A DNA stretch of 64,000 bases from Acidimicrobiia bacterium (lineage in GTDB: Bacteria > Actinomycetota > Acidimicrobiia > Spongiisociales > JAHEDJ01). A program made the position numbers and the translations under genes. The DNA is taken from the NCBI GenBank assembly GCA_035471805.1, contig DATIPS010000019.1:145-64144 (forward strand). Reading direction: 5' to 3'. How positions within the stretch are numbered: position 1 is the first letter of the stretch; every line of letters starts with the position of its first letter. Of the stretch, positions 3,403-37,741 are shown one piece after another. The notes below the pieces were generated by a model that was given only the letters and a program-made list of their open reading frames with translations, ran no database searches and was not told the DNA's origin.

Positions 3403-5349
3403 TCAACCCGTCTGCCGCTCTCTGGCGGTCACCACGATGCGGTCGACTACTTCTTCGATCGTCAGATCGGAGGTGTCGAGTATCACTGCGTCCGGTGCGG
3501 CGGTCAGCGGCGAATCCGCCCGCGTCGAGTCGATCGTGTCCCGACGGTGAAGATCGCTTGCGACCCGCTCCACATCCTCGTGACCCTGCTCAGAGGCGCG
3601 TCTGGTGGCTCGTACCTCCGGTCGTGCCGTCAGGAAGACCTTCAAGCCCGCTTCCGGGAAGACGACCGTTCCGATGTCCCGGCCTTCGACAACCGCACTG
3701 CCCCCCTGCCCGGCAACCCACTCATGCTGCTGTGCGACCATAAGTCGGCGGACCTCAGGGATGGCGGATACCGGGCTCGATGCTCTTGTCACGGCCTCCG
3801 TGCGAATCTCCGACCCCACATCACGCCCGTCGATCAGCATCCTGCCGCCCGCATACCCGAACCTGTGCCGGGAGACTTCTGCGATCACCGCAGATGTGTC
3901 GTCGAGATCAAGCGATGCTTCCAAGGCTACGAGTGTCGCCGCCCGATAGAAGGCACCGGTGTCGAGGTGTGGCAACTCGAGCCTCTCCCCCACTGCACGA
4001 CTCACGGTCGTCTTGCCCGACCCGCCGGGTCCGTCGATCGCGACAATGATTCCCATATCGGGGCGGACCATAGCCGCCGGAACTGTGACCGATTCGAGTG
4101 CGTTGAAGAATCCCGGCCACGTCTTCGCAACACATTCCGGATCCACGATCCCGACGCCCGGGGTGGCCACGCCGGCGACTGCGAATGCCATGGCGATGCG
4201 GTGGTCGTCGTACGTGGCTATTTCCCCCCCATGTGGTGAACCCCCCTCCACCACGATCGAATCAGCCGTTGTGTGTGCTGTGATGCCGATCACCGCCAGT
4301 TGCTCCCGGAGGGCCGTCAACCGGTCGGATTCCTTGATGCGGAGGTTGCCGATGTTCGAAACCGTCGACACCCCGGCGGCAAACGCACAGACAACCGCCA
4401 GCATGAGGGCGGCGTCCGGGGCGGAGTTCATGTCTCGCGACACCGCAGCCAACCGCCCAGGTCCCGAGACACGCACCCCCGTTTTAGTCCACTCGACCGA
4501 ACAACCCATATCGGCCAGGACCTCGAAGAACAACAGATCCGGTTGTCTAGAGCGAACGTCGACCCCCACGATCTCGATCGTTCCATTGCTCACTGCGGCT
4601 GCCGCGGCGGGATAAACCGCAGCCGAGACGTCCGGTTCGATCGAATAGCCCGTCCCTCGATAACCGGTAGATCCGCGAACGTGAATCATCGGTCCCGGCC
4701 GCATCTCGGCTGCGGCCCCGAATGCGGCCATGACGTCGAGCGTCATCTCAACATATGGTCGGGAGACGAGGACGTCGTTGAGGAAACGAATCTCCGTGTC
4801 GCCGTCGAGGAGAGGAGCGATCATGGCCACCGCTGAGACGTACTGACTCGACCTCGTGGCGTCGATCGTGATCGACCGTCCCACCGGGTTCTTGGCGCCG
4901 ACGGCCAGGGGCGGACCTTCGCCATCACCGAGCATCTCGACTTGCGCTCCGAGGGCGCGCAGAGCAGCTACGAGATCGGTGATCGGCCGGAGGCGCATGC
5001 GGGCACTGCCGTCTATCACGACCCGACCGGGTACGAGCGTGCTCACTGCTGTGATGAATCGAGCCGTCGTGCCGGAGTTTCCGACTTCCAGAGGTGCGCC
5101 GGGAACCGAAAGGAGACCGGCCGAGCCTTCCACTATCCACGCCTCCGGGTCATCGTCCGCGATAGCTACCCCGAGGGCCCGCAGGCAGGAGCGCATAGCC
5201 TCCGTGTCCTCGGCCTCCAGCGGGTGCAGCAGCGAACTGGGTCCACTAGCCAGGGCGGCGATCACCAGTGCGCGGTTTGTGATACTGCGCGAGCCCGGTA
5301 TCTCCAGGGATCCGGTCACCCGTCCGTGACGAACTTCGTAGGCGGTCAC
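3403..5349 (-). CDS. aroA-cmk: bifunctional fusion: 3-phosphoshikimate 1-carboxyvinyltransferase (AroA, N-terminal) + cytidylate kinase (Cmk, C-terminal)
   Basis: Single uninterrupted frame. AroA part has LEIPGSRSITNRALVIAALA, SAQYVSA, ends KTWPGFFNALESV. Continues through linker TVPAAMVRPD into MGIIVAIDGPGGSGKTTVSRA (P-loop Cmk; Met codon = cat at 4054-4056) to stop at 3403. Preferred start is GTG at 5349, overlapping rluB stop as GTGA and giving a normal-length AroA N-terminus. Track ORF extends to a start at 5403 (58-nt overlap with rluB). Confidence 0.85.
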   Translation of the reverse strand: MTAYEVRHGRVTGSLEIPGSRSITNRALVIAALASGPSSLLHPLEAEDTEAMRSCLRALGVAIADDDPEAWIVEGSAGLLSVPGAPLEVGNSGTTARFITAVSTLVPGRVVIDGSARMRLRPITDLVAALRALGAQVEMLGDGEGPPLAVGAKNPVGRSITIDATRSSQYVSAVAMIAPLLDGDTEIRFLNDVLVSRPYVEMTLDVMAAFGAAAEMRPGPMIHVRGSTGYRGTGYSIEPDVSAAVYPAAAAAVSNGTIEIVGVDVRSRQPDLLFFEVLADMGCSVEWTKTGVRVSGPGRLAAVSRDMNSAPDAALMLAVVCAFAAGVSTVSNIGNLRIKESDRLTALREQLAVIGITAHTTADSIVVEGGSPHGGEIATYDDHRIAMAFAVAGVATPGVGIVDPECVAKTWPGFFNALESVTVPAAMVRPDMGIIVAIDGPGGSGKTTVSRAVGERLELPHLDTGAFYRAATLVALEASLDLDDTSAVIAEVSRHRFGYAGGRMLIDGRDVGSEIRTEAVTRASSPVSAIPEVRRLMVAQQHEWVAGQGGSAVVEGRDIGTVVFPEAGLKVFLTARPEVRATRRASEQGHEDVERVASDLHRRDTIDSTRADSPLTAAPDAVILDTSDLTIEEVVDRIVVTARERQTG

Positions 5350-6062
5350 GGCGCGGTCGATCCGTACAGGGAACGAACTTCGTCGATCGTCAACGGACGC
5401 CACTCCCCGCTCTTCAGGTTCCCATCACGCAACGGGCCGATTGCGGAACGAAAGAGAGTGATGACGGGCGAACCGATCGCGCTGCACATGCGCCGAACTT
5501 CACGCTTGCGCCCTTCGCCCATCACGATTTCCAGCATCGTGTTCTCACCCTGTGCGTCCACGATCCTGGCGGACACGGCACGAGCCGGGCCGTCGTCGAG
5601 TTCGACACCGTCGGTCAACCTGCGGACGTCTGCCGGCTTGGGAGTCCCGTGAACGAGGGCGGTGTAGGTCTTGGTGACGCGGTTGCTGGGATGCGTTATG
5701 TGTTGTGCAAGGTCACCGTCGTTGGTCAACAGGATGAGACCTTCGGAGTCCAGGTCCAGACGTCCAACCGGAAACACCCTCGAGCCCTCCGGAACCAGGT
5801 CGACGACCGTCTTGCGACCGTGTGTGTCCTCGGCGGTGCTGACCACGCCCGCCGGTTTGTTCAACAGGTAGTACACGAGACCGGGGGCAACCGGGAGCGC
5901 TACTTCATCGACTTCCACACGCTCGACTTCGGGATCGATCTTCTGCCCCAGGTGGGCGACCGACCCGTCGACCTTGATGCGGCCGGCCCTGATCAGCTCC
6001 TCGGCAGCGCGCCGGGAGCACAGTCCGGACCGGGCTACCACCTTCTGCAACCGTTCGTTCAA
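5346..6062 (-). CDS. rluB: 23S rRNA pseudouridine synthase, RsuA/RluB family
   Basis: N-terminal S4 domain (RLQKVVARSGLCSRRAAEELIRAGRIKVDG) and catalytic motif VGRLDLDSEGLILLTNDG. Position between cmk and scpB matches mycobacterial Rv1711. Confidence 0.85.
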   Translation of the reverse strand: MNERLQKVVARSGLCSRRAAEELIRAGRIKVDGSVAHLGQKIDPEVERVEVDEVALPVAPGLVYYLLNKPAGVVSTAEDTHGRKTVVDLVPEGSRVFPVGRLDLDSEGLILLTNDGDLAQHITHPSNRVTKTYTALVHGTPKPADVRRLTDGVELDDGPARAVSARIVDAQGENTMLEIVMGEGRKREVRRMCSAIGSPVITLFRSAIGPLRDGNLKSGEWRPLTIDEVRSLYGSTAP

Positions 6063-24888: not shown

Positions 24889-25821
24889 CTAGTCCCCGGA
24901 CCCGTACCGCGTCAGGATCCTGGCACGAAGGTCGGAGAGCGCTTCGGCAACGCCCGGGCCTTCGACGAGCTCCGCTTCGTTGCCGAGCCTCAGCAGAAGG
25001 CGAGCTATCACCGCGACGTCGCCGGCAGAGAACCTGATGACCAGACCGGTCGTGTCGTCTTCCACGATCTCGATCGGGTAATACTCGGCGACCCACCTCG
25101 CCCGGTTGGTCAGCCGGATCGTGGCCCGTACGTCATCTTCGCCCGGCAGATACCTGACCTCGACCGCCGGCGGATGCTCGGGTTTGGCGAAGGCCTCGTC
25201 GGTGAAGTTCGCCTCTCTGATGCGATCCACCCGGAAGATTCGCTCACCTCCTGCGGATCGGCAATAGGCCGACAAATACCAGTTGCCGAGGGCGGACGCG
25301 ACACTCCAAGGCTCGACCGATCGCTCTTTTGTCTCGCCTTTGCCGAGCGACGCGTAGACGATGTCTACGACGTGACCCTCGGCTGCAGCCTTGCGGAGCA
25401 GGCCCACGAGCTGCGGTTCACCTGCCAGGTCCACGGTGAGTACCTCTGCGCCGTCCGGCGTCAGTGCCGCACTGAGCTTCTCAACCGCACGCTCGAGAGA
25501 AGGAGGTGCTTGACCGCTGCTGATAACCGCCAGGCCGGAAGCCAGCAGACCCAGACCCTCGGCAGGTGTGAGCCGCAACGGTCTGGCGAAATAGTCGGCC
25601 ATGTCGACGACGACCTCATCGTCTTCCACATAGGCGACCATCAGATCACCGGGACCGTAGCCGGGGAGCCCGCAGACGAAGACGAGATCGAGATCCGCTA
25701 TCAACTCTTTGCCGGAATAGCCGAAGCGCTCGCACACCTCGTCCACGGTCGCTCCCGGGTTGGCTATTACCCACGGCAACATCGACAGGATCCGATTCAA
25801 GCGTTGGGCGGTCCGGTTCAT
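24889..25821 (-). CDS. pafC: proteasome accessory factor PafC (HTH + WYL domain)
   Basis: N-terminal wHTH (RLNRILSMLPWVIANPGATVDEV), WYL-like region (HVVDIVYAS...SVEPWSVASALGNWYLSAYCR). Immediately downstream of pafB. Confidence 0.8.
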   Translation of the reverse strand: MNRTAQRLNRILSMLPWVIANPGATVDEVCERFGYSGKELIADLDLVFVCGLPGYGPGDLMVAYVEDDEVVVDMADYFARPLRLTPAEGLGLLASGLAVISSGQAPPSLERAVEKLSAALTPDGAEVLTVDLAGEPQLVGLLRKAAAEGHVVDIVYASLGKGETKERSVEPWSVASALGNWYLSAYCRSAGGERIFRVDRIREANFTDEAFAKPEHPPAVEVRYLPGEDDVRATIRLTNRARWVAEYYPIEIVEDDTTGLVIRFSAGDVAVIARLLLRLGNEAELVEGPGVAEALSDLRARILTRYGSGD

Positions 25822-26741
25822 GCGACCCCTCCGACGCGTTGCACGAGACGGGTCCGCAGCGCCGCCGGAGCCAGTACCTCCGCCTTGTCCTCGAAGACCA
25901 GCAACCAGCCGATGAATGCGTCTTCGTTGGCGACATCCATCTGTGCCGTGATCGATCCGTCAGCGTGGTGTTCTCTCACTGCGTTGGACGGGAGTTGCCG
26001 CTCGGCCCACCATGAAACTTCCGCATCGAAACGAACCTCCGCCCGGACATCCTCCTCACCGGCCTCCCACGGTGCGCGTGGGATGGCATCCGAAGCCTTG
26101 AAGCCGGGAGGACGGTCGAATGCGCGGGGCTCGGAGGTCACGATCATGTGCGACGTCTTGTCGACCCGGAATGCCCTGACGCCTTGCCCCGGCGCATGTC
26201 CGACCAAGTACCAGTGGCCGCGCTGGTGAACCAGGCCATACGGGTGCAAGCGACGGCCGCTGCCTCGGTAGGTGAACTCGAGGACGGAACGATCTGCGAC
26301 CGCTTGAAATGCCGTCGCCAGCCCGGCGGAGCCGAGGCCCAGTTCGGCTGCGAGAGGCTCGCCGCCTCCTGAGAACGGAATCCCACCCAGCTTCAGGAGA
26401 GCATCGGGACCCTGAGGTTGCCCGCCGAGCCGAACGATCTGCGCGGCGAGCCAGAGTGCTGTGCGTTCTTCATCGGTCAGGCCCGGATCGTCGAGCTGAT
26501 ACTCGTCCGGAGGGAGGAAGTAGCCGAACTCCACCTCCCAGATGTCCGTCGGCCGGAGTTCCAGCGGGATGCCCATCTCGCGCAGGAGATCCTTGTCCCG
26601 CTCGAACATGCGATGGAACGCCTCGTCGCTCTTGTCCTCGTAGCCGGCAACGGTGTGCCGAATCTCATCGGCGGTGACCGGCCGTCCCGCCGTGAGTAGA
26701 CAGGCGAGAAGGTTCAACAGGCGTTCTAGAACGTTCTTCAT
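25818..26741 (-). CDS. pafB: proteasome accessory factor PafB (HTH + WYL domain)
   Basis: wHTH N-terminus (VLERLLNLLACLLTAGRPVTADEI), WYL region (LHPYGLVHQRGHWYLVGHA). 4-nt overlap with pafC. Confidence 0.8.
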   Translation of the reverse strand: MKNVLERLLNLLACLLTAGRPVTADEIRHTVAGYEDKSDEAFHRMFERDKDLLREMGIPLELRPTDIWEVEFGYFLPPDEYQLDDPGLTDEERTALWLAAQIVRLGGQPQGPDALLKLGGIPFSGGGEPLAAELGLGSAGLATAFQAVADRSVLEFTYRGSGRRLHPYGLVHQRGHWYLVGHAPGQGVRAFRVDKTSHMIVTSEPRAFDRPPGFKASDAIPRAPWEAGEEDVRAEVRFDAEVSWWAERQLPSNAVREHHADGSITAQMDVANEDAFIGWLLVFEDKAEVLAPAALRTRLVQRVGGVA

Positions 26742-26855
26742 TCCCGCGACAGGGTACGTCCCGTCGGCCGCAGGGGGAAGGACCTCGGCCGCCGGATCGG
26801 GATCGATTGAAGGGCCGGCGGTGCCTCCCCTCGCGTTGCCGGCACCCGGCGGCGA

Positions 26856-28211
26856 CTAGAGGCTCGAAATGAGCTTGTCGACGCGTTCATCCTGCGATTT
26901 GAACGGGTCTTTGCACAATACGGTTCGCTGTGCCTGGTCGTTCAGCTTGAGGTGCACCCAGTCCACCGTGTAATCCCGCTGCTTCTGCTTGGCGGCGCGA
27001 ATGAAATCACCCCGCAGGCGGGCCCGGGTGGTCTGCGGCGCCCTCTCGATCGCATCTTCGATCGCACGGTCGGTGACCACCCGATCAACGAACCCCTTCC
27101 GATCCAGCATGTAGAAGAGGCTGCGCCTGCGGGTCACGTCGTGATAGCTGAGGTCGATCATGGCGAGCCGGGCACTCGACATGGACAACCGGTGGCGTTC
27201 GCGATAGCGCTCGATGAGGTGGTATTTCATCACCCAGTCGACCTCACGATCGAGCCGGAGCGGATCTTTCTCGAGGTTGGTCAGGAGGTGTTCCCACATC
27301 TCGACGGCACGCTGAACCGGCGCCGGGAATCCGACCGTGCGGGAGTAGCGGAGGGCCCGGTCGAAGTACTCCCATTGAATGTCGAGGGCATTCAGTTCTC
27401 TCCCGTTCTGGAGCTTGATGGGCCGCCGGCAAGTGATGTCGTGGCTGATCTCCCTGATCGCTCGGATCGGATTCTCGAGAGCCAGGTCCCGGAACACGAC
27501 GTCGTCTTCGAGCATCTGCAGGATCGCCGCCACCGTTCCAACCTTCACAAACGTGGCGTACTCGGACATGTTGGAATCGCCTGCGATGACGTGCAGCCTT
27601 CGATAACGCTCTGCGTCGGCGTGAGGCTCGTCCCTGGTGTTGATGATCGGGCGACTCCTGGTGGTTGCGGACGACACCCCCTCCCAGATGTGTTCGGCGC
27701 GCTGAGCGATGCTGAAGGTCGTCCCGCGGGCGGTCTGGAGCAGCTTGCCGGCGCCTGTGAATATCTGCCGGGACACGAGAAACGGAAGCAAGGTGTCGAC
27801 GGTTCGCTGGAAGTCGCTGTGACGGCTGAGCAGGTAGTTCTCATGGCATCCGTAGGAGTTGCCTGCAGAATCCGTGTTGTTCTTGAAGAGATAGATCTCA
27901 CCCTTGATCCCCTCCTCTTCCAGCTGCTCCTCGGCTGCGCTCACCAGGTCTTCGAGTATCCGCTCGCCCGCCTTGTCGTGGGCGACGAGGTCGTAGAGGC
28001 TGTCGCATTCAGGGGTGGCGTATTCAGGATGAGATCCCACGTCCAGATACAGGCGTGAACCGTTCTCGAGGAAGACGTTCGAAGAGCGTCCCCAACTCAC
28101 GACCCGGCGAAAGAGATAGCGAGCCACCTCATCGGGGCTGAGACGTCGCTGCCCGCGCAAGGTGCAGGTGACCCCGTATTCGTTTTCGAGCCCGAAGATG
28201 CGACGCTCCAT
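26856..28211 (-). CDS. pafA: Pup--protein ligase PafA
   Basis: [11 protein letters not shown]-terminus and carboxylate-amine ligase fold shared with Dop. 451 aa as mycobacterial PafA. Confidence 0.9.
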
Positions 28212-28305
28212 GAAGCCAGCGTACTGCTACGGCTGCGAAAGAGGACCGCGCCGCCCTGACGATGGGCCGGACCGCTGCCGCTTCAATCCCGTTCCAGGAA
28301 CCCGC

Positions 28306-28968
28306 TCAGCCGGCCAGTTCGGCCTCCGAGAGGCGACGGAATGTCCGCCGGCCGCGGGTCCGGTCCAAGACGGCACCTTCCCATCCTTCGATACCAGGAT
28401 CGCTGTTCAGCGACCGGAACGCTTCCTTGGCGATCTCCAGTGCTCGTTCGTAGGACTGACCTGTTTCGAAGTGACTGCGGAGATACGCGACCAGTTCCTC
28501 TGCCTGACCCCCGATTGCCCCCACTTCGTGCTCGTCGGACAGGGTGCCGTCGTAGAGAATCTTGAACATGTCCGAGCCGGTCTCGGATATGCCGACCACG
28601 AGGATCTCGACCTCATACGGCTTGACCTCATGCGTGAAGATGTTTCCCAGGGTCTGTGCGAATGCATTCGCCAGCCCTTTCACGTCGACATCGGGGCGGC
28701 CGTACATGTATCCCTTGATGTCTGCGTGTCGGATGCCGGCCACCCTGAGGCTCTCGAACTCGTTGTAACGGCCGACGCCGGCAAAGGCGATCCGGTCGTA
28801 GATCTCGGAGAGCTTGTGCAGCGTCCGGCTGGGGTTCTCGGCCAGCAGAAGCGCGCCCTGGTCGAACTCGACGGCTGCGATGCTCCTGCCGCGGGCAATG
28901 CCCTTCCTCGCATATTCGGCGCGATCTTTGATGAGTTGTTCCGGTGGAACGTAGAAAGGCATGCTCAT
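28306..28968 (-). CDS. prcA: 20S proteasome alpha subunit
   Basis: Alpha-type (no propeptide/Thr1). MSMPFYVPPEQLIKDRAEYARKGIARGRS as actinobacterial PrcA. 4-nt overlap with prcB. Confidence 0.9.
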   Translation of the reverse strand: MSMPFYVPPEQLIKDRAEYARKGIARGRSIAAVEFDQGALLLAENPSRTLHKLSEIYDRIAFAGVGRYNEFESLRVAGIRHADIKGYMYGRPDVDVKGLANAFAQTLGNIFTHEVKPYEVEILVVGISETGSDMFKILYDGTLSDEHEVGAIGGQAEELVAYLRSHFETGQSYERALEIAKEAFRSLNSDPGIEGWEGAVLDRTRGRRTFRRLSEAELAG

Positions 28969-29756
28969 CGCACGGCCTCCAACGCGGCAATCGCAACAGG
29001 TTGTATCCGAGCCTCGTCCAGTTCGTCGTACCCGGACGATCCGACGGTCACAACGGTCGGAAAGATACCGCGGCGCGGGTCGGGCCCGGCCGTGGCCACA
29101 TCCTGCTCGGCGGCTGCAACCAGGGCCTCCATGGCCAGAGAGAGGGCTTCGGGCTCCTCCAGATCGGGGCGGTAGCGATTACGCAGGTAGGACCGGGCCT
29201 CACGAGATCCGGAACCCGTCGCACCAAAGTCTTCTTCTTCGTAGCGTCCGCCGATCACATCGAAGGTGAACAGGCGCCCAACTTCCTCGAGTTCGTCGTA
29301 TCCGGCAAAGAGAGGAACGACCACGAGGCCCTGAAATACCATCGGCAGCTGTTGGCGGACCATACGGGCCAGGTGGGTCGCCTTGCCCTCGAGGCTCAAC
29401 CGGGAGCCCTCGAGCTTCTCGTAGTGCTCTAGTTCGGTTTGAAACAATCTGACCATGTCCACCGCCAGGCCGGCTGTGCCGGAGATCGCCACGACGCTGA
29501 ACTGGTCGGTGGGGAAGACCTTCTGCATGCGCCGGTGGGCTACCGAGTAGCCCTCGGTGGCCTGCCGGTCGCCGATCATTACGACTCCGTCCCTGTAGCG
29601 AGCCGCCAGTACCGTCGTCGCTTCGGGAGTTTCCAGGGAGCCCAGGTTGGCGGCGTTCACCGGCCAGGTTGGCTCGAGCTGCAGAGATCTGAGCAGCTGT
29701 GTGAAACCGGGTCCGTCGGAGAAATCGAGGCCCTTGGGCATGAGTCGATGGATCAC
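28965..29756 (-). CDS. prcB: 20S proteasome beta subunit (with propeptide)
   Basis: Propeptide followed by processing site ...PEATTVLAARYRDGVVM (catalytic Thr). Beta-type fold. Confidence 0.9.
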   Translation of the reverse strand: MIHRLMPKGLDFSDGPGFTQLLRSLQLEPTWPVNAANLGSLETPEATTVLAARYRDGVVMIGDRQATEGYSVAHRRMQKVFPTDQFSVVAISGTAGLAVDMVRLFQTELEHYEKLEGSRLSLEGKATHLARMVRQQLPMVFQGLVVVPLFAGYDELEEVGRLFTFDVIGGRYEEEDFGATGSGSREARSYLRNRYRPDLEEPEALSLAMEALVAAAEQDVATAGPDPRRGIFPTVVTVGSSGYDELDEARIQPVAIAALEAVR

Positions 29757-29956
29757 TCGCCGCCTTTCTGAACGTAGTTCTTGACGAACTCCTCGGCGTT
29801 TTCCTCGAGCACCGAGTCGATTTCGTCGAGAAGTTCGTCGATCTTCTCGGTAGCCTCCGACACCTTCGTGTCGACGGCGATCTCTTCGGATTCAGACGTC
29901 TTCGCGGCCGGTGTCTGTTGCTTCTTCTGTTCCTGCTCGGCCATCACTACCTCCAA
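29753..29956 (-). CDS. pup: prokaryotic ubiquitin-like protein Pup (C-terminal Glu variant)
   Basis: Acidic, disordered-like 63-67 aa protein ending ...EEFVKNYVQKGGE (GGE not GGQ). Start ATG at 29956 or 29944 (MAEQEQKK). Overlaps dop 3' end by 53-65 nt. 4-nt overlap with prcB. Confidence 0.85.
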   Translation of the reverse strand: MEVVMAEQEQKKQQTPAAKTSESEEIAVDTKVSEATEKIDELLDEIDSVLEENAEEFVKNYVQKGGE

Positions 29957-31415
29957 GCGCTGCGAGGAGGCCGGCTGCGTTTGGTGAGCCGTCGAGCAAC
30001 TCTTCCACGCGTTCCCTGCCTCCTCTCAAGGGTTCCATCATAGGCACCCGCTTGAGTGAACTTTCGCCGGTGTCGAACACCAGGGAGTCCCAGTTGGCGG
30101 CAACGAGCGCCTCGGGATACCGGGACACGCATTCGCCGCGAAAATAGGCTCTCGTCCCTTCGGGCGGCCGGCGCGTTGCCGTATCTACCTCTTCATCTGT
30201 GAATAGCCGTCTCAGAGCACCCCGCCGGACGAGGCGGTGGTAGATACCTCGATCCGGATCGATGTCGTGGAACTGGAGGTCGAGTGCCCGGAGTTTGGCG
30301 TCGCTCCAGTTGAGGCCGTCGCGTTCCCGCATCGCGTCGAGCACGCGGTACTTGGCCGACCAGTCGAGACGATCTGCCGTGGAGAGCGGGTCGCGTTCCA
30401 GGTCGTCCAGGATGCCACCCCACTCCGCCAGCAGGCGGTCGTGCTCTGTGCCGGACTGTTCGGCGTATTTGGTGAGCCATTCGCTGTACTGCCGCTGCAA
30501 CTCGAGCGCCGTCGCCGTGGTGCCGTCGGCCAGTTTCAACGGGAGCCGCATCTCCAGGTCGTGACTGACCTGCCAGCAGGCGTCGACGGGATCCTGCAGA
30601 GTGATGAAGTCCGGCAGCGCTCCATCCTCGACTGCTGCCAGGAACAAGGCCGTTGTGCCGACCTTGAGGAAGGTCTGCACTTCCGACATCGTCGCATCGC
30701 CGATGATCACGTGCAGGCGCCGGTACTTCGAGGGTGTTCCGTGCGGTTCGTCGCGCGTGTTGATGATGGGCCGCTTCAGGGTCGTTTCGAGGCCGACCTC
30801 CTCTTCGAAGAAGTCGGCCCTCTGCGTGACCTGGAAATCTGTGTGCGGCCGGCCGTTCTCGGATCCCAGTTTGCCGGAGCCGGTGAAGACCTGGCGGGTC
30901 ACCAGAAAGGTGGTCAGATGTTTGATCACCTCGCCGAACGGCAGTTGCCTGGCAAGGAGGTAGTTCTCGTGCGCTCCGTAGGAGTTGCCTTTGCCGTCAG
31001 AGTTGTTCTTGTAGAGCGCAACGACCTGTCCGGCGGGAACCAACGCCTGGGCACTGCGCCCGGCTCTCGCCATGACGACCTCACCGGCCTTGTCGTGTAG
31101 CGCAGCCTGGAGCGGGTCGAGGCATTCGGGCGTTGAATACTCGGGGTGGGCATGGTCCACATACAGGCGCGCACCGTTTGTCAGAACCACGTTGGGAATG
31201 CCGGCGTCGAGATCCGCCGGAGCTCGCGACTCGAACCCGAAGCCGCGTGCATCCCGGCCCGGCGACTCTTCCTCGAAAGACCACTTCACCCGTGCGGAAC
31301 GGCCCTGATAGGCGTTTATGACGAGGCCTGATGCGACGGCAGGATTGAAGTTGGGCTGGTTCCTGACCGTTATCCCGAACTCGGTTTCGGTCCCTATGAC
31401 CTTTGGTAACGCCAC
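29892..31415 (-). CDS. dop: Pup deamidase/depupylase Dop
   Basis: ALPKVIGTETEFGI N-terminus, PafA/Dop ligase fold. GTG start at 31413-31415 overlapping mpa TAG stop by 1 nt. Confidence 0.9.
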   Translation of the reverse strand: MALPKVIGTETEFGITVRNQPNFNPAVASGLVINAYQGRSARVKWSFEEESPGRDARGFGFESRAPADLDAGIPNVVLTNGARLYVDHAHPEYSTPECLDPLQAALHDKAGEVVMARAGRSAQALVPAGQVVALYKNNSDGKGNSYGAHENYLLARQLPFGEVIKHLTTFLVTRQVFTGSGKLGSENGRPHTDFQVTQRADFFEEEVGLETTLKRPIINTRDEPHGTPSKYRRLHVIIGDATMSEVQTFLKVGTTALFLAAVEDGALPDFITLQDPVDACWQVSHDLEMRLPLKLADGTTATALELQRQYSEWLTKYAEQSGTEHDRLLAEWGGILDDLERDPLSTADRLDWSAKYRVLDAMRERDGLNWSDAKLRALDLQFHDIDPDRGIYHRLVRRGALRRLFTDEEVDTATRRPPEGTRAYFRGECVSRYPEALVAANWDSLVFDTGESSLKRVPMMEPLRGGRERVEELLDGSPNAAGLLAALGGSDGRAGTEEATDTGREDV

Positions 31416-33145
31416 TACAGATACTGGCCGGTGGTGGTCGTCTCGATCGTCTTCGACTGGGACTCACCTTCGATCAAGGTCCGCACATAGACGATCCGCT
31501 CGCCCTTCTTGCCGGAGATCTTCGCCCAGTCGTCGGGGTTCGTCGTATTCGGGAGATCCTCGTGCTCCCGGAACTCCTGTTTGATCGCAGCCAGCAAATC
31601 GGTGGTTCGAATACCCACCTCGCCGGTCTCGATCTCTCGCTTGATTGCGTCCTTCTTCGCCCGCCTCACGATGTTCTCGATCATTGCGCCGCTGGAGAAG
31701 TCCTTGAAGAAGAGGATCTCACGGTCACCGTTGGCATAGGTGACCTCGAGGAACCGGTTCTCATCACCCTCGCCGTACATGCGCTCAACGGTCTGTTTGA
31801 TCATGTCCCCGATCATCTCCGCCGCTTCATCCTCGTGCGCAATGAGTTCACCGGGATCGAGGGGCAAAGCGGGGGTGAGGTATATCCGGAAGATCTCCCT
31901 GGCTGCCTCTTCGTCTGGTCGATTGATCTTGATCTTCACGTCGAGCCGACCGGGTCGCAGGATGGCCGGATCGATCAAGTCCTCCCGATTCGAGGCTCCG
32001 ATGACTATCACGTTCTTCAGGCTCTCCACACCGTCGAGTTCGGAGAGCAGTTGGGGAACGATCGTGGACTCCACGTCCGACGAGACGCCCGTGCCGCGTG
32101 TTCGAAACAGTGAGTCCATCTCATCGAAGAAGACGATGACGGGTACCCCCTCGTCCGACTTCTCCTTGGCCCGCTGGAAAATCAGCCGGATCTGGCGTTC
32201 GGTCTCGCCGACGTACTTGTTGAGCAGTTCGGGGCCCTTGATGTTCAGGAAGTACGACCTCGCGTCGTCCCGGCCCATCCGTTTCGCAACGGCCTTGGCG
32301 AGGCTGTTGGCCACAGCTTTCGCTATCAGCGTCTTGCCGCAGCCGGGTGGGCCGTAGAGCAGAACGCCTTTCGGCGCCTCGAGATCGTATTTGTCGAAGA
32401 GACTCTTGTGGACGTAGGGAAGCTCGACGGCATCCCGTATCGTCTCGATTTGATCTCTCAGTCCCCCGACCATCTCGTAGGTGATGTCGGGCACTTCTTC
32501 GAGGACGAGCTCCTCGACCTCCGGCCGAGCCAGTTTCTCGTGCACGAGGCCGGCCTTGCCGTCTATGCGCACATGATCGCCCGCACGCAGAAACTGGTCG
32601 CGCATCGGTTCGGCGATCTCCACCACTCTCTCCTCATCGCCATGACCCACGACGATCACCCGGTGCTCGTCGAGCCGCTCCTTGACGGTGGCGATTTCAC
32701 CGGTCGGGTCGAAATGCCTGACGTCGACCACGTTGAACGACTCGTTGAGGAGCACTTCCTGGCCACGCTGAAGTTGCTTGACCTCGATCGCCGGCTGGGC
32801 ATTCACCCGCATCTTGCGTCCGGCGGTCAGCAAGTCAACCGTGCCGTCGTCATTCACATTGAGGACCGTTCCGAAAGGGTTAGGAGGTGTAGTCAGCTTC
32901 TCGACCTCGTCCCGCAACAGCGACAATTGCTCGCGAGCTTCTTCGAGCACGGCGGTGAGGCGTTCGTTCTGTTCGGCAGCTCTGCGGATCTGTGCCTTCT
33001 GCTCGACCAGCCGCTCTTCGAGAATTCGGACGTGCTTGGGAGCATCCAGGAGTCGAGCGCGAAGGGTTCCTATCTCAGCTTCGAGCTCTGCGACTTTGTC
33101 GAGAAGATCTCTGATGTGACCCGGGTCCCGGGGTTCTTGCGTCAT
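31415..33145 (-). CDS. mpa: proteasome-associated AAA ATPase Mpa/ARC
   Basis: Coiled-coil N-terminus, OB region, Walker A GPPGCGKT, Walker [12 protein letters not shown]-terminal GQYL proteasome-docking motif. ATG verified at 33143-33145 with GAGAGGTGG Shine-Dalgarno. 191 upstream codons of track ORF rejected. Confidence 0.9.
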
Positions 33146-33268
33146 CGTCCACCTCTCTTTGCAGTATACGGATGCCCCCACTTTGTAAAAGGGACTGGTT
33201 GGTGTTCCGCTACTGGGGAGCCGTGTTGTAGGATGACGCTTCGCAAAACACCGAACCAGGAGTTCGAC

Positions 33269-33514
33269 ATGAAGGTGTGGATCGATCAGGATCTCTGCAC
33301 AGGAGACGGTCTCTGCGAGGAGATCGCCCCCGATGTATTCGTAATGCTCGATGACGGCCTCGCCTATGTGCGCGAGGGCGAGAAGATTTTTGCTGCCGAA
33401 GCCGGAAACCCGCAAGGAGCCGACGGGCTCGCTGTGGTGCCGGAAGGCCAGGAGGATGTGACCGTTGAGTCCGCCGAGGAGTGCCCCGGCGAATGTATCT
33501 TCATCGAGCCGTAG
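33269..33514 (+). CDS. small ferredoxin (single-cluster, Cys-x5-Cys...CP type)
   Basis: 82 aa: [24 protein letters not shown]...[17 protein letters not shown] Shine-Dalgarno 8 nt upstream of ATG 33269. Divergent from mpa. Confidence 0.75.
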
Positions 33515-34364
33515 GCTCTTGACCTTCTGCCGAGCCTGATACCGAATCGGAGTCCTCGGACTCCGATTCTTCTCGGTTTCTCCCGGGCGCGACCTTTCTC
33601 GCCACACAGATGAAGCCGGTATGCCCGACCATTTGATGGTCCGGGCGAACGGACCTTCCCTGAACGTTCCATGTGCGAAGTAGGGCTTCGAACGCCAGCA
33701 CATCCTCGAAGCAGCCACTCATCCGAAGCGATTCAACCGTCTGCTGGAGCTGCGGGACCGTCGGCACATAGGCGCAGAACACCCCTCCCCCGCCCAGTCC
33801 ACGCGTAGCCGGCTCGACACTGTGCCACGGTTCCGGAACATCCAGCACGATGCGATCCGGTCGAACCTCGAGTATCTGCTCCTCAACCTCCCCGACCCGT
33901 AAGTCCAGGTTGTCTGGGATTCCCCCGAGCCAGCGGCTGATGGTCTTCTTGGCGTGGTCGGCGTGGTCATCACGTCGCTCGACGCTCACGACCCTGCCGG
34001 TCGAGCCAACCGCTCTCAGAAGCCCCAGAGTCAGGGCTCCAGAACCGGTCCCCGCCTCGAGAACGACCGAACCGGGTGCAATGTCCGCATAGACCAGGAT
34101 CGGGCCCAGGTCCTTCGGGTAAACCACCTGGGCGCCCCTTCGCATCTTGAGGACGTAGTCCGACAGTCGCGGCCGAAGCACGACGAACTCCGCGCCGCCG
34201 GTCGACGAGACACGCGATCCGTCTTCGATCCCGATCAGGTCGTTGTGGTCGATGACGCCGTGATGGGTGTGAAAGGCTCCGCCTTCTTGCAGACGCAACA
34301 GAAAGCGGCGCTTCTTACCATCGATCAGGAGACACTGATCGCCGGCCCTGAATAGTTCCGTCAT
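33501..34364 (-). CDS. trmI: tRNA (adenine58-N1)-methyltransferase TrmI
   Basis: SAM-MTase motif [15 protein letters not shown], TrmI/Gcd14 family, as Rv2118c. ATG at 34362-34364 overlaps ttuA stop (ATGA). Confidence 0.8.
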
Positions 34365-35275
34365 TGGCCCTCTCCGGTCGGCCTCGCCGCACGGTCCTGG
34401 AGTTTGCAGAACGCGCACACGTCACCGGTGGTCGGTGATCCGCACACGCTACAGGCTGTGAGCTCCGGCCGTGGGCCTTCATTGAAGATCGGTGAGCCGC
34501 GCTCGAGGAAGCCGAATAGAAACCGCTGTTTGAATCCCGGGGTGTGCTGCTCCATGGCATTCAACTCTTCCTTGATCCGGTTCAGGGTGTTCCCGTGGGC
34601 CATCGGGCACTCGTCTATCTCATAGTCGATGCCGCGAATCACCGCATAGGCGGCCGTCTCCCGTTCGGCGACTCTGATCAGCGGCTTCACTTTGCGAGCC
34701 AGTCCCGAGTCGGTCTCGACCAGCACCGGGTGCTGACGGGCCAGGTAGTCGATGTTCCAAACGGCGACGTTGCTGAAGAGGGTGGCCGCTTCATCGTCCA
34801 GGTTGTGGCCCATGACCAGGACGTTGTATCCGTCCCTGCGTGCGATGGAGTTCAACACGTACCTCTTGGAAAGACCGCAGGCGGAACAAGCCGTGCGACT
34901 GGACGAAGCGGTCGCGGCCGGAATGTCGAAGCCGAACTCCTCTCGAAGATCGATCTCGGCCAGGTTGAGGCCACGCTGATCGGCAAACCTCCTGGAATAG
35001 TTGGCCGATTCGGCGCTGTAGGCCCCGATTCCCAGTTCCAGGTTCACGCCGTCCACCGCGTACCCGAGGTCGGTGAGGATCTCCCACAGCGCCAGGCTGT
35101 CTTTCCCGCCCGATACGCCGAGCAGAAGCCGATCTTCGGCGCCGAACATCTCGAAGTCGTCGATGGTCCGCTGCACCTGGCGGTGCACGTGCTCCACGAA
35201 ATGCTCACCGCAGAACGCTGCATTGTGGCGGCGGACTTCTATCGCTGCCCGACCCCGACAAACTCGGCAGCGCAT
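34361..35275 (-). CDS. ttuA: tRNA 2-thiolation PP-loop ATPase, TtuA/TtcA family (TtuA-like)
   Basis: N-terminal Zn finger CRVC...CGEH, PP-loop SGGKDS, putative Fe-S ligands CSAC at 130/133 and ECPMAHGN Cys at 222 (same numbering as Thermus TtuA), C-terminal CSVC...CAFC Zn finger. Confidence 0.8.
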   Translation of the reverse strand: MRCRVCRGRAAIEVRRHNAAFCGEHFVEHVHRQVQRTIDDFEMFGAEDRLLLGVSGGKDSLALWEILTDLGYAVDGVNLELGIGAYSAESANYSRRFADQRGLNLAEIDLREEFGFDIPAATASSSRTACSACGLSKRYVLNSIARRDGYNVLVMGHNLDDEAATLFSNVAVWNIDYLARQHPVLVETDSGLARKVKPLIRVAERETAAYAVIRGIDYEIDECPMAHGNTLNRIKEELNAMEQHTPGFKQRFLFGFLERGSPIFNEGPRPELTACSVCGSPTTGDVCAFCKLQDRAARPTGEGQ

Positions 35276-35278
35276 GCC

Positions 35279-35473
35279 TCAGCCGCCGGAGATGACGGGC
35301 CGAAGCTCGATCTCATCGGCATCATCGAGACGATCGGTTGACAACAGGAGTTCGCTCTGGCGGATCACCAGAACCGACTCGGGAAGAATGGACAGCTTCT
35401 CGAGCAACTGCCCGACGGTCAGCGGTCCCTGAAGCTCTTCTTCTCGCCGGGGGTGGCGAAGAAGCACCTTCAT
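35279..35473 (-). CDS. ttuB: ThiS/MoaD-like ubiquitin-fold sulfur carrier ending Gly-Gly (TtuB-like)
   Basis: 64 aa ending ...IELRPVISGG. Stop is 3 nt upstream of ttuA ATG. Confidence 0.7.
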   Translation of the reverse strand: MKVLLRHPRREEELQGPLTVGQLLEKLSILPESVLVIRQSELLLSTDRLDDADEIELRPVISGG

Positions 35474-35649
35474 GACAAGACGGAGAGAGCGGCCACCACC
35501 ATTGTGAGAACCATGCCGATCACCACGACGATGACGACTGTTCTGATGAATCGTTGATTTCGCATGGACGGGTGAGTTTAGGTCGTATGCGGTCGTTCGT
35601 CGTCTGCGGATTGCGATTTGGGTCCGGCAGATTGCTAGCTTCAGGATCG

Positions 35650-35877
35650 ATGAACCCGTTCACTTCCTTGAATCCACTGTCTGCAGGATTGACCAGGGCG
35701 TTTCGCGGTCTTCGTACGGGTGACCCGCAACTGATCCTGATGGGCGCCGCTTTGCTGGCGTATGCGTGGCTGCACAACCGGCCAACCGGCAAAGAGTTGA
35801 TCTACAGGCGCAAGCTGAAGGCTGGAGAAGGAGTGCAGGTCAGGTTGAGGCAACCGGATGGAACTCAGACCCGGTAG
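35650..35877 (+). CDS. small hypothetical membrane protein (uncertain)
   Basis: ATG at 35650 (MNPFTSLNPLSAGL...) with one predicted TM (LILMGAALLAYAWL). No recognisable family. Confidence 0.25.
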   Translation: MNPFTSLNPLSAGLTRAFRGLRTGDPQLILMGAALLAYAWLHNRPTGKELIYRRKLKAGEGVQVRLRQPDGTQTR

Positions 35878-36056
35878 ACCTCAACGACGGCCTTGCCTTC
35901 TTTGCCCTTGCGGCGGCCGAATATGAAGGCGAACGCGACGATCGCGACAACGCCGACTGCCAGCCAGACGGCACTCGTCTTGGCGGCTTGCTTGGTCTCC
36001 TGAAGAGCGTCCTCGATCTGTTTCGCTTTCGCTTCGATGTCTGCGCGCGTAACCAT
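35865..36056 (-). CDS. small membrane protein, DUF3618-like partner of holin-X
   Basis: MVTRADIEAKAKQIEDALQETKQAAK... with C-terminal TM. ATG at 36054-36056 overlaps holin stop (ATGA). Confidence 0.45.
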   Translation of the reverse strand: MVTRADIEAKAKQIEDALQETKQAAKTSAVWLAVGVVAIVAFAFIFGRRKGKEGKAVVEVYRV

Positions 36057-36349
36057 CAGCGTGTAGCCCTCCAGATGATCAGACCGGCACTTCCTGCCAG
36101 GAGCAGGGTGGAAATGAAATAGGCGAGCGATTTCCACAGATCGCCCTCGGGCAGGATCATCACGAGCACCAATGCGAGTGCGACGCCGAGAAAGACGGCA
36201 CCGAAGGCAAACAGTATCCCGGCCCCGATGCCCATGCCGGCCACGCGTCCGAGTCGTTTAGCCGGCTCGACGGTCTCCTGCATGATGTACTGCTTGGACA
36301 GATCTGTCAGTTCGGTGACCAGTTGTGGTAGTTCTTTTGCGCTGCTCAT
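36056..36349 (-). CDS. phage-holin-family protein (actinobacterial Holin-X type)
   Basis: 97 aa, two TM helices (GMGIGAGILFAFGAVFLGVALALVLVMIL; FISTLLLAGSAGLIIW), charged N-terminus. Confidence 0.5.
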   Translation of the reverse strand: MSSAKELPQLVTELTDLSKQYIMQETVEPAKRLGRVAGMGIGAGILFAFGAVFLGVALALVLVMILPEGDLWKSLAYFISTLLLAGSAGLIIWRATR

Positions 36350-36466
36350 CTCGAGATCAGGCTACTCCTTCGATCGGGCCTGAGGGGAATCCGCAGAGTC
36401 TCCACGGTTCGGGCGGCGGGAAGGCGCCCACAAGCCGGACCCGGACCGTCTACCCTGCCACCTCGC

Positions 36467-37741
36467 ATGCGCGGAGAGATCTGGCTTCAACGACCTCGCC
36501 CGGGCCGGGGTCGGCATCGGGCCGTTACCGGTCTCGGTGCGCGATTTCACCTGGTGTGGGCAGGTCAGGCGATCTCGCAGCTCGGAGATTACGTCGCCTA
36601 CTTCACCATCCCGGCCTTCGTCAGGTACGTCATCACCGACCAGCCGTCCGACTTCGGACTGATCTATGCGGCCGAGAGCCTGCCGACGTTCCTGGTGGGA
36701 GTATTCGCCGGGGTGCTCCTCGATCGCCTGCGGCTCCGCCCGGTGATGATCGTGGCGGACCTGGTCAGAGCGGGAGCGTTCCTCGTGCTTGCCCGGATCG
36801 CCGCCGGCGCTTCGCCCGGCCTGTCGGCGGTTCTGGCCATCTCGTTTCTGGTCGGCACCTTCGCCGCAACCTTCACGAGTGCCCTGTTCTCCTTTCTCCC
36901 CGTGATCGTCAAGCCGGAACAGCTGGGTATCGCCAATGCCAGGGTCGCGCTGGTTCAGCAAGTCGCTTTCGTCGTGGGTCCGGCAGTCGGCGGCTTGATC
37001 GTCAGTTTCTGGGACTACACGACGGCTTTTGCCCTGAACTCGCTTACCTTCCTCGTCTCTGCCGTTTCGATCCTGGCCGTTGGTCCTGCCGCACGGGAGA
37101 GGAAGGCCGGCCGCGCCGGTTACCTGGCCGAGGCACGGGAAGGCTTCACGTACCTGTGGGAGGAGCGCCGGTTGCGTCTGCTGACGGCTGCGGGCGCGAT
37201 ATCCAACTTCGTGGTCGGTTTTCTCGAGTCCACCATCGTGTTGATCGGTGCAGACATCTTCGGAATCGTCGAGACAGACGAGCTGAGTCTCCTATACGTG
37301 GCCAGCGGTGTCGGAGGGATTCTGGGGGCGGTCTCGGCAGGCAGCGTCGGCAAACTGTTGGGCCTCGGTCGAACGCTCGTCGTCGGAATGATCGTCTTTG
37401 GATCCGGATTCACGCTCTTGACCTTCATGGACGCGCAGTGGCAGGTCCTGACGGTCATGACTGTGACGTTTCTCGGGCTCACGTGGATCAATGTTCCGCT
37501 AATCACCATGCGGCAGCTCTATACCCCCGACCGGCTGCTCGGACGCGTCACCTCAGCCTCTCGAGCGTTGATGTGGAGCACCCTGCCGATCGGCTCGCTC
37601 ATCGGTACCCGGATTGCCGACTTCTTCGGGATCGAGACCATCGCCAGAATCGAACCCCTGTTCATCATCGCTTTCGGCCTCTACCTGATCTGGACGCCGA
37701 TCTGGACCGCCACTGCAGAAAGAGCCGCTGCCGACTCCTGA
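36467..37741 (+). CDS. MFS transporter
   Basis: 12 predicted TM helices. MFS_3-like start LVWAGQAISQLGDYVAYF. True start may be slightly downstream of 36467. Confidence 0.75.
   Translation: MRGEIWLQRPRPGRGRHRAVTGLGARFHLVWAGQAISQLGDYVAYFTIPAFVRYVITDQPSDFGLIYAAESLPTFLVGVFAGVLLDRLRLRPVMIVADLVRAGAFLVLARIAAGASPGLSAVLAISFLVGTFAATFTSALFSFLPVIVKPEQLGIANARVALVQQVAFVVGPAVGGLIVSFWDYTTAFALNSLTFLVSAVSILAVGPAARERKAGRAGYLAEAREGFTYLWEERRLRLLTAAGAISNFVVGFLESTIVLIGADIFGIVETDELSLLYVASGVGGILGAVSAGSVGKLLGLGRTLVVGMIVFGSGFTLLTFMDAQWQVLTVMTVTFLGLTWINVPLITMRQLYTPDRLLGRVTSASRALMWSTLPIGSLIGTRIADFFGIETIARIEPLFIIAFGLYLIWTPIWTATAERAAADS

Follow-up and report, generated by a model that had tools for sequence, protein, structure and literature searches.

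A conserved, translationally coupled ttuB-ttuA-trmI operon predicted to modify the tRNA T-loop in Acidimicrobiia and other Actinomycetota

We analysed a 64,000-nucleotide stretch of DNA from an Acidimicrobiia bacterium (GenBank assembly GCA_035471805.1, contig DATIPS010000019.1; hereafter the window), in which four open reading frames (ORFs) follow one another on the minus strand at 33501-35565 with nearly zero intergenic space. They encode a small hydrophobic peptide, a predicted ubiquitin-like sulfur carrier (TtuB), a PP-loop ATPase (TtuA) and a predicted tRNA methyltransferase (TrmI) (Table 1). A sequence-only reading of this DNA had described a 64-residue protein ending in Gly-Gly 3 nucleotides (nt) upstream of a PP-loop ATPase, and a stop codon of that ATPase overlapping the ATG of trmI. 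We confirmed both junctions. ttuB occupies 35473..35279 and ttuA begins at 35275, three bases (GGC) separating the two genes, while the TGA of ttuA (34363-34361) overlaps the ATG of trmI (34364-34362) in the tetranucleotide ATGA at 34364-34361. A GGAGAGG motif lies 4 nt 5' of the trmI ATG.

We compared the ATPase with known thiolases and related enzymes. Its best match among solved structures was Thermus thermophilus TtuA (5gha_A; E 5.4e-85, 288.6 bits, 47% identity), with residues 1-298 of the window protein aligned to residues 1-297 of the Thermus enzyme. Pfam recovered TtuA_LIM_N (36.1 bits, cutoff 27) together with ATP_bind_3, and TIGR00269 was passed (68.7 bits, cutoff 62.75). Pyrococcus horikoshii TtuA (PH0300) matched at E 2.3e-68 (234 bits, 38% identity) and Methanococcus maripaludis NcsA at E 1.4e-23 (87 bits, 23% identity). 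The match to TilS was marginal (22.9 bits), and Escherichia coli TtcA was 21% identical, the TtcA model reaching 80.8 bits against a cutoff of 272.

The residues expected of a TtuA enzyme are in place. An SGGKDS PP-loop spans residues 55-60, and the two zinc fingers that the sequence-only reading had called, consistent with the Pfam domains, are formed by Cys3/Cys6/Cys22/His25 at the N terminus and Cys275/278/287/290 at the C terminus. The same reading had put the cluster-binding cysteines at 130, 133 and 222; the first two stand, and the third is Cys223 in the window protein, which aligns with Thermus Cys222 as Cys130 and Cys133 align with their Thermus counterparts. Across the window protein, seven relatives and Thermus TtuA, both zinc fingers, SGGKDS, Cys130/133/223, Lys137 and the HNLDDE block are invariant. 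In a neighbour-joining tree rooted on E. coli TtcA, the window protein falls in the bacterial TtuA clade with the Thermus enzyme, Pyrococcus TtuA and then NcsA lie progressively further away, and TtcA is the outgroup. Hence, scores and tree placement put the ATPase beside Thermus TtuA and not with TtcA or the carriers of cofactor pathways, the groupings that the sequence-only reading itself had held to speak against it. The comparisons support its assignment to the TtuA clade, rather than to TtcA, NcsA or a cofactor pathway, and 2-thiolation of uridine 54 (U54) or of 5-methyluridine 54 (m5U54) is its predicted activity.

The Gly-Gly protein carries a Pfam ThiS domain (27.8 bits, cutoff 22.5). 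Its top match among solved structures was Thermus TtuB (5ztb_E, E 5.5e-7), followed by archaeal SAMP2; in the same search, no ThiS, MoaD or CysO structure was matched at E < 10. These results support its identification as a ThiS-family beta-grasp carrier that is most like TtuB.

For the methyltransferase, Pfam returned GCD14 (PF08704, 100.5 bits, 1.5e-28) and TrmI-like_N (PF14801, 61.3 bits, 8.5e-17). The best solved-structure match was Mycobacterium tuberculosis Rv2118c (1i9g; E 2.2e-74, residues 4-262), and Thermus TrmI matched at E ~1e-40. Rv2118c is a proven methyltransferase for N1 of A58, giving 1-methyladenosine 58 (m1A58) (PMC10531406, citing Varshney 2004). Domains and structural match bear out the sequence-only identification of the protein as the m1A58 enzyme, and support a TrmI orthologue with predicted methylation of A58 at N1. 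The window protein differs from Rv2118c in an acidic, Ser-rich C-terminal tail of ~25 residues (33501-33590, minus strand); its relatives lack this tail and measure 259-263 residues, against 287. Both tRNA genes of the window (GGTTCAAATCC and GGTTCAAGTCC) carry U54, C56 and A58. C56 and m1A58 are published determinants of 54-thiolation (PMC7912444).

We then asked how widely this arrangement is kept. A scan that took one genome per species yielded 80 loci for comparison with the window proteins: 58 from Actinomycetota, classed by record title or, if unlabelled, by the presence of Pup genes, and 22 from other phyla (Chloroflexota, Dormibacterota, Acidobacteriota, Rokubacteria, Aquificota, Thermaerobacter and Nitrospirota). 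In Actinomycetota, a ttuB homologue lies directly 5' of ttuA, or is fused to it, at 58 of 58 loci; trmI follows ttuA directly at all 57 loci with enough sequence, and mpa, encoding the proteasome ATPase, lies beyond trmI at all 49 with enough sequence. Measured at 68 loci, the ttuA/trmI junction is in the majority a 4-nt overlap, and it rarely exceeds a few bases. Thus, the recurrence of gene order and start/stop overlaps at 57 of 57 actinobacterial loci is not a matter of chance, and the coupling of ttuA to trmI, which the sequence-only reading had matched to the m1A58 dependence known from Thermus, is real and strongly conserved.

Outside Actinomycetota, ttuB accompanies ttuA at 17 of 22 loci and trmI at only two. 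One of the two, L034, carries Pup genes; its contig is probably actinobacterial and wrongly labelled. The other, L085 (Nitrospirota; L085:5806-7736), has ttuB, ttuA and trmI separated by gaps of 0 and -4 nt, with no mpa in the 6 kb retrieved downstream, and represents either independent assembly of the operon or its horizontal transfer. The exact TtuA sequence of the window recurred only on short metagenome contigs, with gene order unchanged. Relatives at 65-69% identity on long contigs keep an extended block of MFS transporter, holin-like protein, small ORFs, ttuB, ttuA, trmI, ferredoxin gene, mpa, dop, pup, prcB, prcA, pafA, pafB and pafC. The 120 top proteins from a search seeded with an Ilumatobacteraceae TtuA were all metagenome-derived and included no cultured carrier of the operon, and our literature search found no paper that brings TtuA and Acidimicrobiia together. 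The proteins are new members of known families, but no description of the conserved operon or of its occurrence in mesophiles turned up in the searchable literature.

The carrier itself varies at its C terminus. In most other Actinomycetota (many of L013-L064), TtuB extends one to four residues past Gly-Gly, for example as ISGGAA, and eight or more loci, most of them from separate assemblies (L018, L020, L022, L027, L035, L051, L052 and L074), encode TtuB and TtuA in frame as a single ORF of 381-413 residues with both parts intact. Tailed and fused forms thus imply either proteolytic release of the carrier or a carrier that acts in cis. A free C-terminal glycine would need proteolysis in these proteins, a processing step undescribed for TtuB. 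Two longer ORFs were not counted as fusions. A TtuB-TtuA-TrmI ORF of 739 residues (L081:5794-8013) has lost the C-terminal zinc finger, and a TtuA-TrmI ORF of 537 residues (protein P0153) has a scrambled TrmI C terminus; each is probably an assembly frameshift.

The first ORF of the unit was absent from the sequence-only reading, and with it the coupled unit comprises four ORFs. The closest clade (L007, L009-L013) retains the hydrophobic peptide (MRNQRFIRTV...), and substitutions within that clade favour the third codon position: they number 202/138/246 at positions 1/2/3, and L010 and L012 differ by 0/0/6. ttuB has no Shine-Dalgarno sequence of its own, and the small ORF may drive its translational coupling. 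In other Acidimicrobiia clades (L016, L017, L024, L032-L034, L041, L048 and L069), a different small basic protein of 60-130 residues with a hydrophobic segment takes the place of the 31-residue ORF and ends at or overlaps the ttuB start.

Downstream, the unit adjoins a Pup-proteasome locus, as the sequence-only reading had noted. The mpa gene starts 355 nt past the trmI stop and is followed on the same strand by dop, pup, prcBA and pafABC. Between trmI and mpa lies a ferredoxin gene on the opposite strand, convergent with trmI, whose 3' end it overlaps by 14 nt, and divergent from mpa. Across loci, the ferredoxin gene is always 80-330 nt from the mpa start, and its distance to trmI ranges from -93 to 4183 nt; trmI and mpa are ~0.1 to 4.8 kb apart while the ttuA/trmI overlap stays fixed. 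Hence, the ferredoxin gene belongs with mpa, and ttuB-ttuA-trmI forms a separate unit. The adjacency to the Pup genes does not look functional: it is inherited synteny, with ttuB-ttuA attached to trmI and not to the Pup genes. By locus numbering, M. tuberculosis trmI (Rv2118c) precedes mpa (Rv2115c) by a few genes and is oriented alike, and this species is not known to carry ttuA or ttuB.

Table 1. Genes of the predicted tRNA modification unit and its neighbours, in window coordinates
Feature	Position	Strand	Description
small ORF	35470..35565	-	31 aa (MRNQRFIRTVVIVVVIGMVLTMVVAALSVLS); one predicted membrane span; TGA overlaps the ttuB ATG
ttuB	35279..35473	-	64 aa; predicted ubiquitin-like sulfur carrier; C terminus ...RPVISGG, then TGA
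ttuA	34361..35275	-	304 aa; PP-loop ATPase; predicted [4Fe-4S]-dependent tRNA U54 2-sulfurtransferase
trmI	33501..34364	-	287 aa; predicted tRNA m1A58 methyltransferase; Pfam GCD14 and TrmI-like_N
ferredoxin gene	33272..33514	+	80 aa; single 4Fe-4S cluster; Pfam Fer4_15, 2.1e-16
mpa/arc proteasome ATPase	31415..33145	-	NCBIfam pup_AAA, 763.9 bits (cutoff 504.75); context, outside the tRNA unit
dop depupylase/deamidase	29892..31415	-	NCBIfam depupylase_Dop, 595 bits (cutoff 492); context
pup	29753..29944	-	C terminus GGE; Pfam Pup, 1.7e-19; context
prcB, prcA, pafA, pafB, pafC	24889..29756	-	Pfam Proteasome (two), WYL/WCX/HTH_PafC; context
pafA	26856..28211 (ORF)	-	probable assignment, read from the ORF tables and from a Pup_ligase-annotated gene at the equal position in relatives

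Several further features of the surroundings were recorded. The 80-residue ferredoxin is 65-86% identical across loci and better conserved than the neighbouring genes. The C terminus of Pup is GGE and not GGQ, which makes deamidation by Dop unnecessary before ligation. Upstream of the unit, 35554-37741 holds an MFS_3 transporter (plus strand), a holin-X-like membrane protein and a 63-residue membrane protein (both minus) and an opposite-strand ORF of 75-95 residues, a block that is syntenic in the 65-69% identical relatives L007-L009. At 3403-5403 (minus strand), a single ORF of 666 residues resembles, from its translation alone, a fusion of AroA (EPSP synthase) and Cmk (cytidylate kinase). 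An Rfam search of the window returned the two tRNAs and no further RNA elements, and a promoter and terminator scan of 33000-36400 gave nothing exceeding the shuffled background.

Very probably, the small membrane peptide, ttuB, ttuA and trmI make up one translationally coupled operon of four ORFs that serves to modify the T-loop of tRNA. From the gene identities, motifs, coupling and conservation, we infer a chemistry, a target position, a sulfur relay and a reason for the coupling, along the lines published for Thermus (PMC3980101, PMC7138817). TrmI would methylate N1 of A58 with S-adenosylmethionine. An E1-like activating enzyme and a cysteine desulfurase, with genes in another part of the genome, would adenylate the C-terminal Gly-Gly of TtuB and convert it to a thiocarboxylate. 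TtuA is predicted to adenylate C2 of U54 or m5U54 at its PP-loop, and its [4Fe-4S] cluster, bound by Cys130, Cys133 and Cys223, would use a free iron site to pass sulfur from thiocarboxylated TtuB (TtuB-COSH) to the base. The product would be 2-thiouridine 54 (s2U54) or its 5-methyl derivative (m5s2U54), depending on whether a U54 methyltransferase is encoded outside the window. Thiolation of position 54 depends on m1A58 in Thermus (PMC7912444, PMC6313347); with trmI in the translational unit of ttuA, this positive determinant would be made together with the thiolase that reads it.

Comparison with known systems shows what is shared and what is particular to the window. The T. thermophilus system, in which TtuA and TtuB work with TtuC, TtuD and IscS/SufS to make m5s2U54, has in common with the window a full-length TtuA similarity that takes in the PP-loop, zinc fingers, CxxC...C cysteines and Lys137, a TtuB of ~64 residues with a Gly-Gly end that is also the best structural-database match, and a documented m1A58 dependence through TrmI. 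Unlike the Thermus system, the window joins trmI translationally to the operon and places a membrane-peptide ORF in front, has no E1 or rhodanese gene nearby, and lacks the acceptor lysines K226 and K229; its operon relatives come from temperate soils and sediments, and its product may be s2U54 rather than m5s2U54. P. horikoshii TtuA shares domain layout and cluster ligands with the window enzyme but belongs to the archaeal branch. Archaeal NcsA/SAMP2 and eukaryotic Ncs6/Urm1, which make s2U34, share the superfamily, the [4Fe-4S] cluster and a ubiquitin-like thiocarboxylate donor (PMC7025502, PMC3980101), but NcsA and Ncs6 target the anticodon, not the T-loop. E. coli TtcA, which makes s2C32, is likewise a PP-loop ATPase of the superfamily but has no partner ubiquitin-like protein.

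Three points weigh against a U54-thiolating operon. The window TtuA passed no curated equivalog, scoring 259 bits against a cutoff of 450 for NF049949, which is built on PH0300; that model is archaeal in type and the sole TtuA equivalog among the model matches, and the failure is a limit of the model set that is expected for a bacterial sequence. No E1, JAMM, rhodanese, desulfurase, TrmFO or other U54 methyltransferase was found within the 64-kb window by motif search and by Pfam scans of those ORFs that could not be identified from their translation. Finally, the reports of m5s2U54 to date are all from thermophiles (PMC6313347), whereas relatives with this operon live in temperate soils, and activity or target could differ in these lineages.

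Other functions for the gene pair have to be set against this evidence. The thiolated position is not readable with certainty from sequence, and TtuA and NcsA share fold, cluster and ubiquitin-like sulfur donor (PMC7025502), which would allow the window enzyme to act on another nucleotide, such as wobble U34 in the manner of NcsA/Ncs6, with an incidental link to trmI. We consider this very unlikely: the match to TtuA stands at 47% and 288 bits against 23% and 87 bits for NcsA, bacteria, Actinobacteria included, use MnmA for s2U34 (PMC7025502), and a fixed translational coupling to a T-loop enzyme at 57 of 57 loci would be puzzling if the enzyme acted on the anticodon. A non-tRNA thiolation, of a cofactor or natural product, has its precedent in PP-loop ATPases that pair with ThiS-like carriers in pathways to cofactors and thio-metabolites. 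We give it hardly any credence, for the adjoining genes (trmI, ferredoxin, holin-like membrane protein, MFS transporter) are not biosynthetic, TtuA keeps both tRNA-binding zinc fingers, and the pair is orthologous to a validated tRNA enzyme.

The position of a Gly-Gly carrier beside the Pup machinery had led the sequence-only reading to raise cross-talk between ubiquitin-like systems. Two Gly-Gly proteins, TtuB and Pup, do lie within 6 kb, and Thermus TtuB is conjugated to lysines of TtuA and TtuC (PMC3980101). That TtuB is mainly a protein modifier, interacting functionally with the neighbouring Pup-proteasome system, is nevertheless highly improbable, and the proposed cross-talk goes unsupported. 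The motif search and Pfam scans of the window that returned no E1, JAMM, rhodanese or desulfurase gene gave no other conjugation gene either, and the window protein has His and Thr in place of K226 and K229, two of the three lysines that accept TtuB in the Thermus enzyme. The opposite-strand ferredoxin gene and the variable spacing to mpa part the two units, the Nitrospirota operon of L085 stands without mpa in the sequence retrieved, and trmI lies near mpa even in M. tuberculosis.

What remains to be weighed is the link to heat. Reviews from 2018-2026 call m5s2U54 thermophile-specific or typical of thermophiles (PMC6313347, PMC13602947), and the sequence-only reading had taken the operon for a mark of growth at high temperature. 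If so, the operon would mark a thermophile in which m5s2U54 raises the melting temperature of tRNA as in Thermus. The fraction of the residues IVYWREL in 28 window proteins, 0.422, corresponds to ~61 C by the Zeldovich formula, and the two window tRNA genes have a G+C content of 65-69%, both in keeping with that idea. The distribution of the operon argues the other way. About 20 related loci bear the MFD identifiers used for genomes from Danish soils and sediments (PMC12313526), and the operon also turns up in genomes of soil catalogues, lakes, groundwater and soda-lake sediments. The thermophile-labelled loci retrieved, L076 from Hydrogenobacter and L046 from Thermaerobacter, show no linkage of trmI to ttuA.

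Composition does not rescue the thermophile interpretation. For TtuA, TrmI and Mpa together, the IVYWREL fraction is 0.445 in the window and 0.425-0.479 in its relatives, with 0.439 in the Danish L008/L010 genome. Thus, the window lies mid-range among its relatives and is not singled out by this signal. We rejected the ~61 C estimate as evidence of thermophily, since relatives from Danish soils reach fractions as high or higher in the shared proteins, and the estimator thus runs too high in this lineage or gene set. With the operon in ~20 Danish soil and sediment genomes and a window composition no different from theirs, the claimed mark of hot growth does not hold, and the operon is not usable as a marker of thermophily. 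That it nonetheless marks a thermophile here is, in our judgement, unlikely.

The wider proposal, which we regard as evenly balanced, is that thermophiles are not alone in 2-thiolating U54: a fixed ttuB-ttuA-trmI unit would make s2U54 or m5s2U54 together with m1A58 in a large set of mesophilic Actinomycetota (Acidimicrobiia, Nitriliruptoria and others) of soil, sediment and water, the operon would encode the Thermus order of m1A58 before s2U54, and the tailed and fused forms of TtuB would imply an unrecognised processing step or a cis-acting carrier. The window and ~60 related loci hold intact, conserved TtuA and TtuB genes locked to trmI in bacteria of temperate habitats. Their position beside the Pup cluster reflects old trmI synteny, and no functional link between two ubiquitin-like systems is to be read from it. 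The conserved ttuA-trmI overlap offers independent genomic support for the circuit from m1A58 to s2U54, so far drawn from Thermus genetics, and predicts 2-thiolated U54 in mesophiles. If the enzymes are active in temperate bacteria, thiolation of the T-loop would have a role beyond heat stabilisation.

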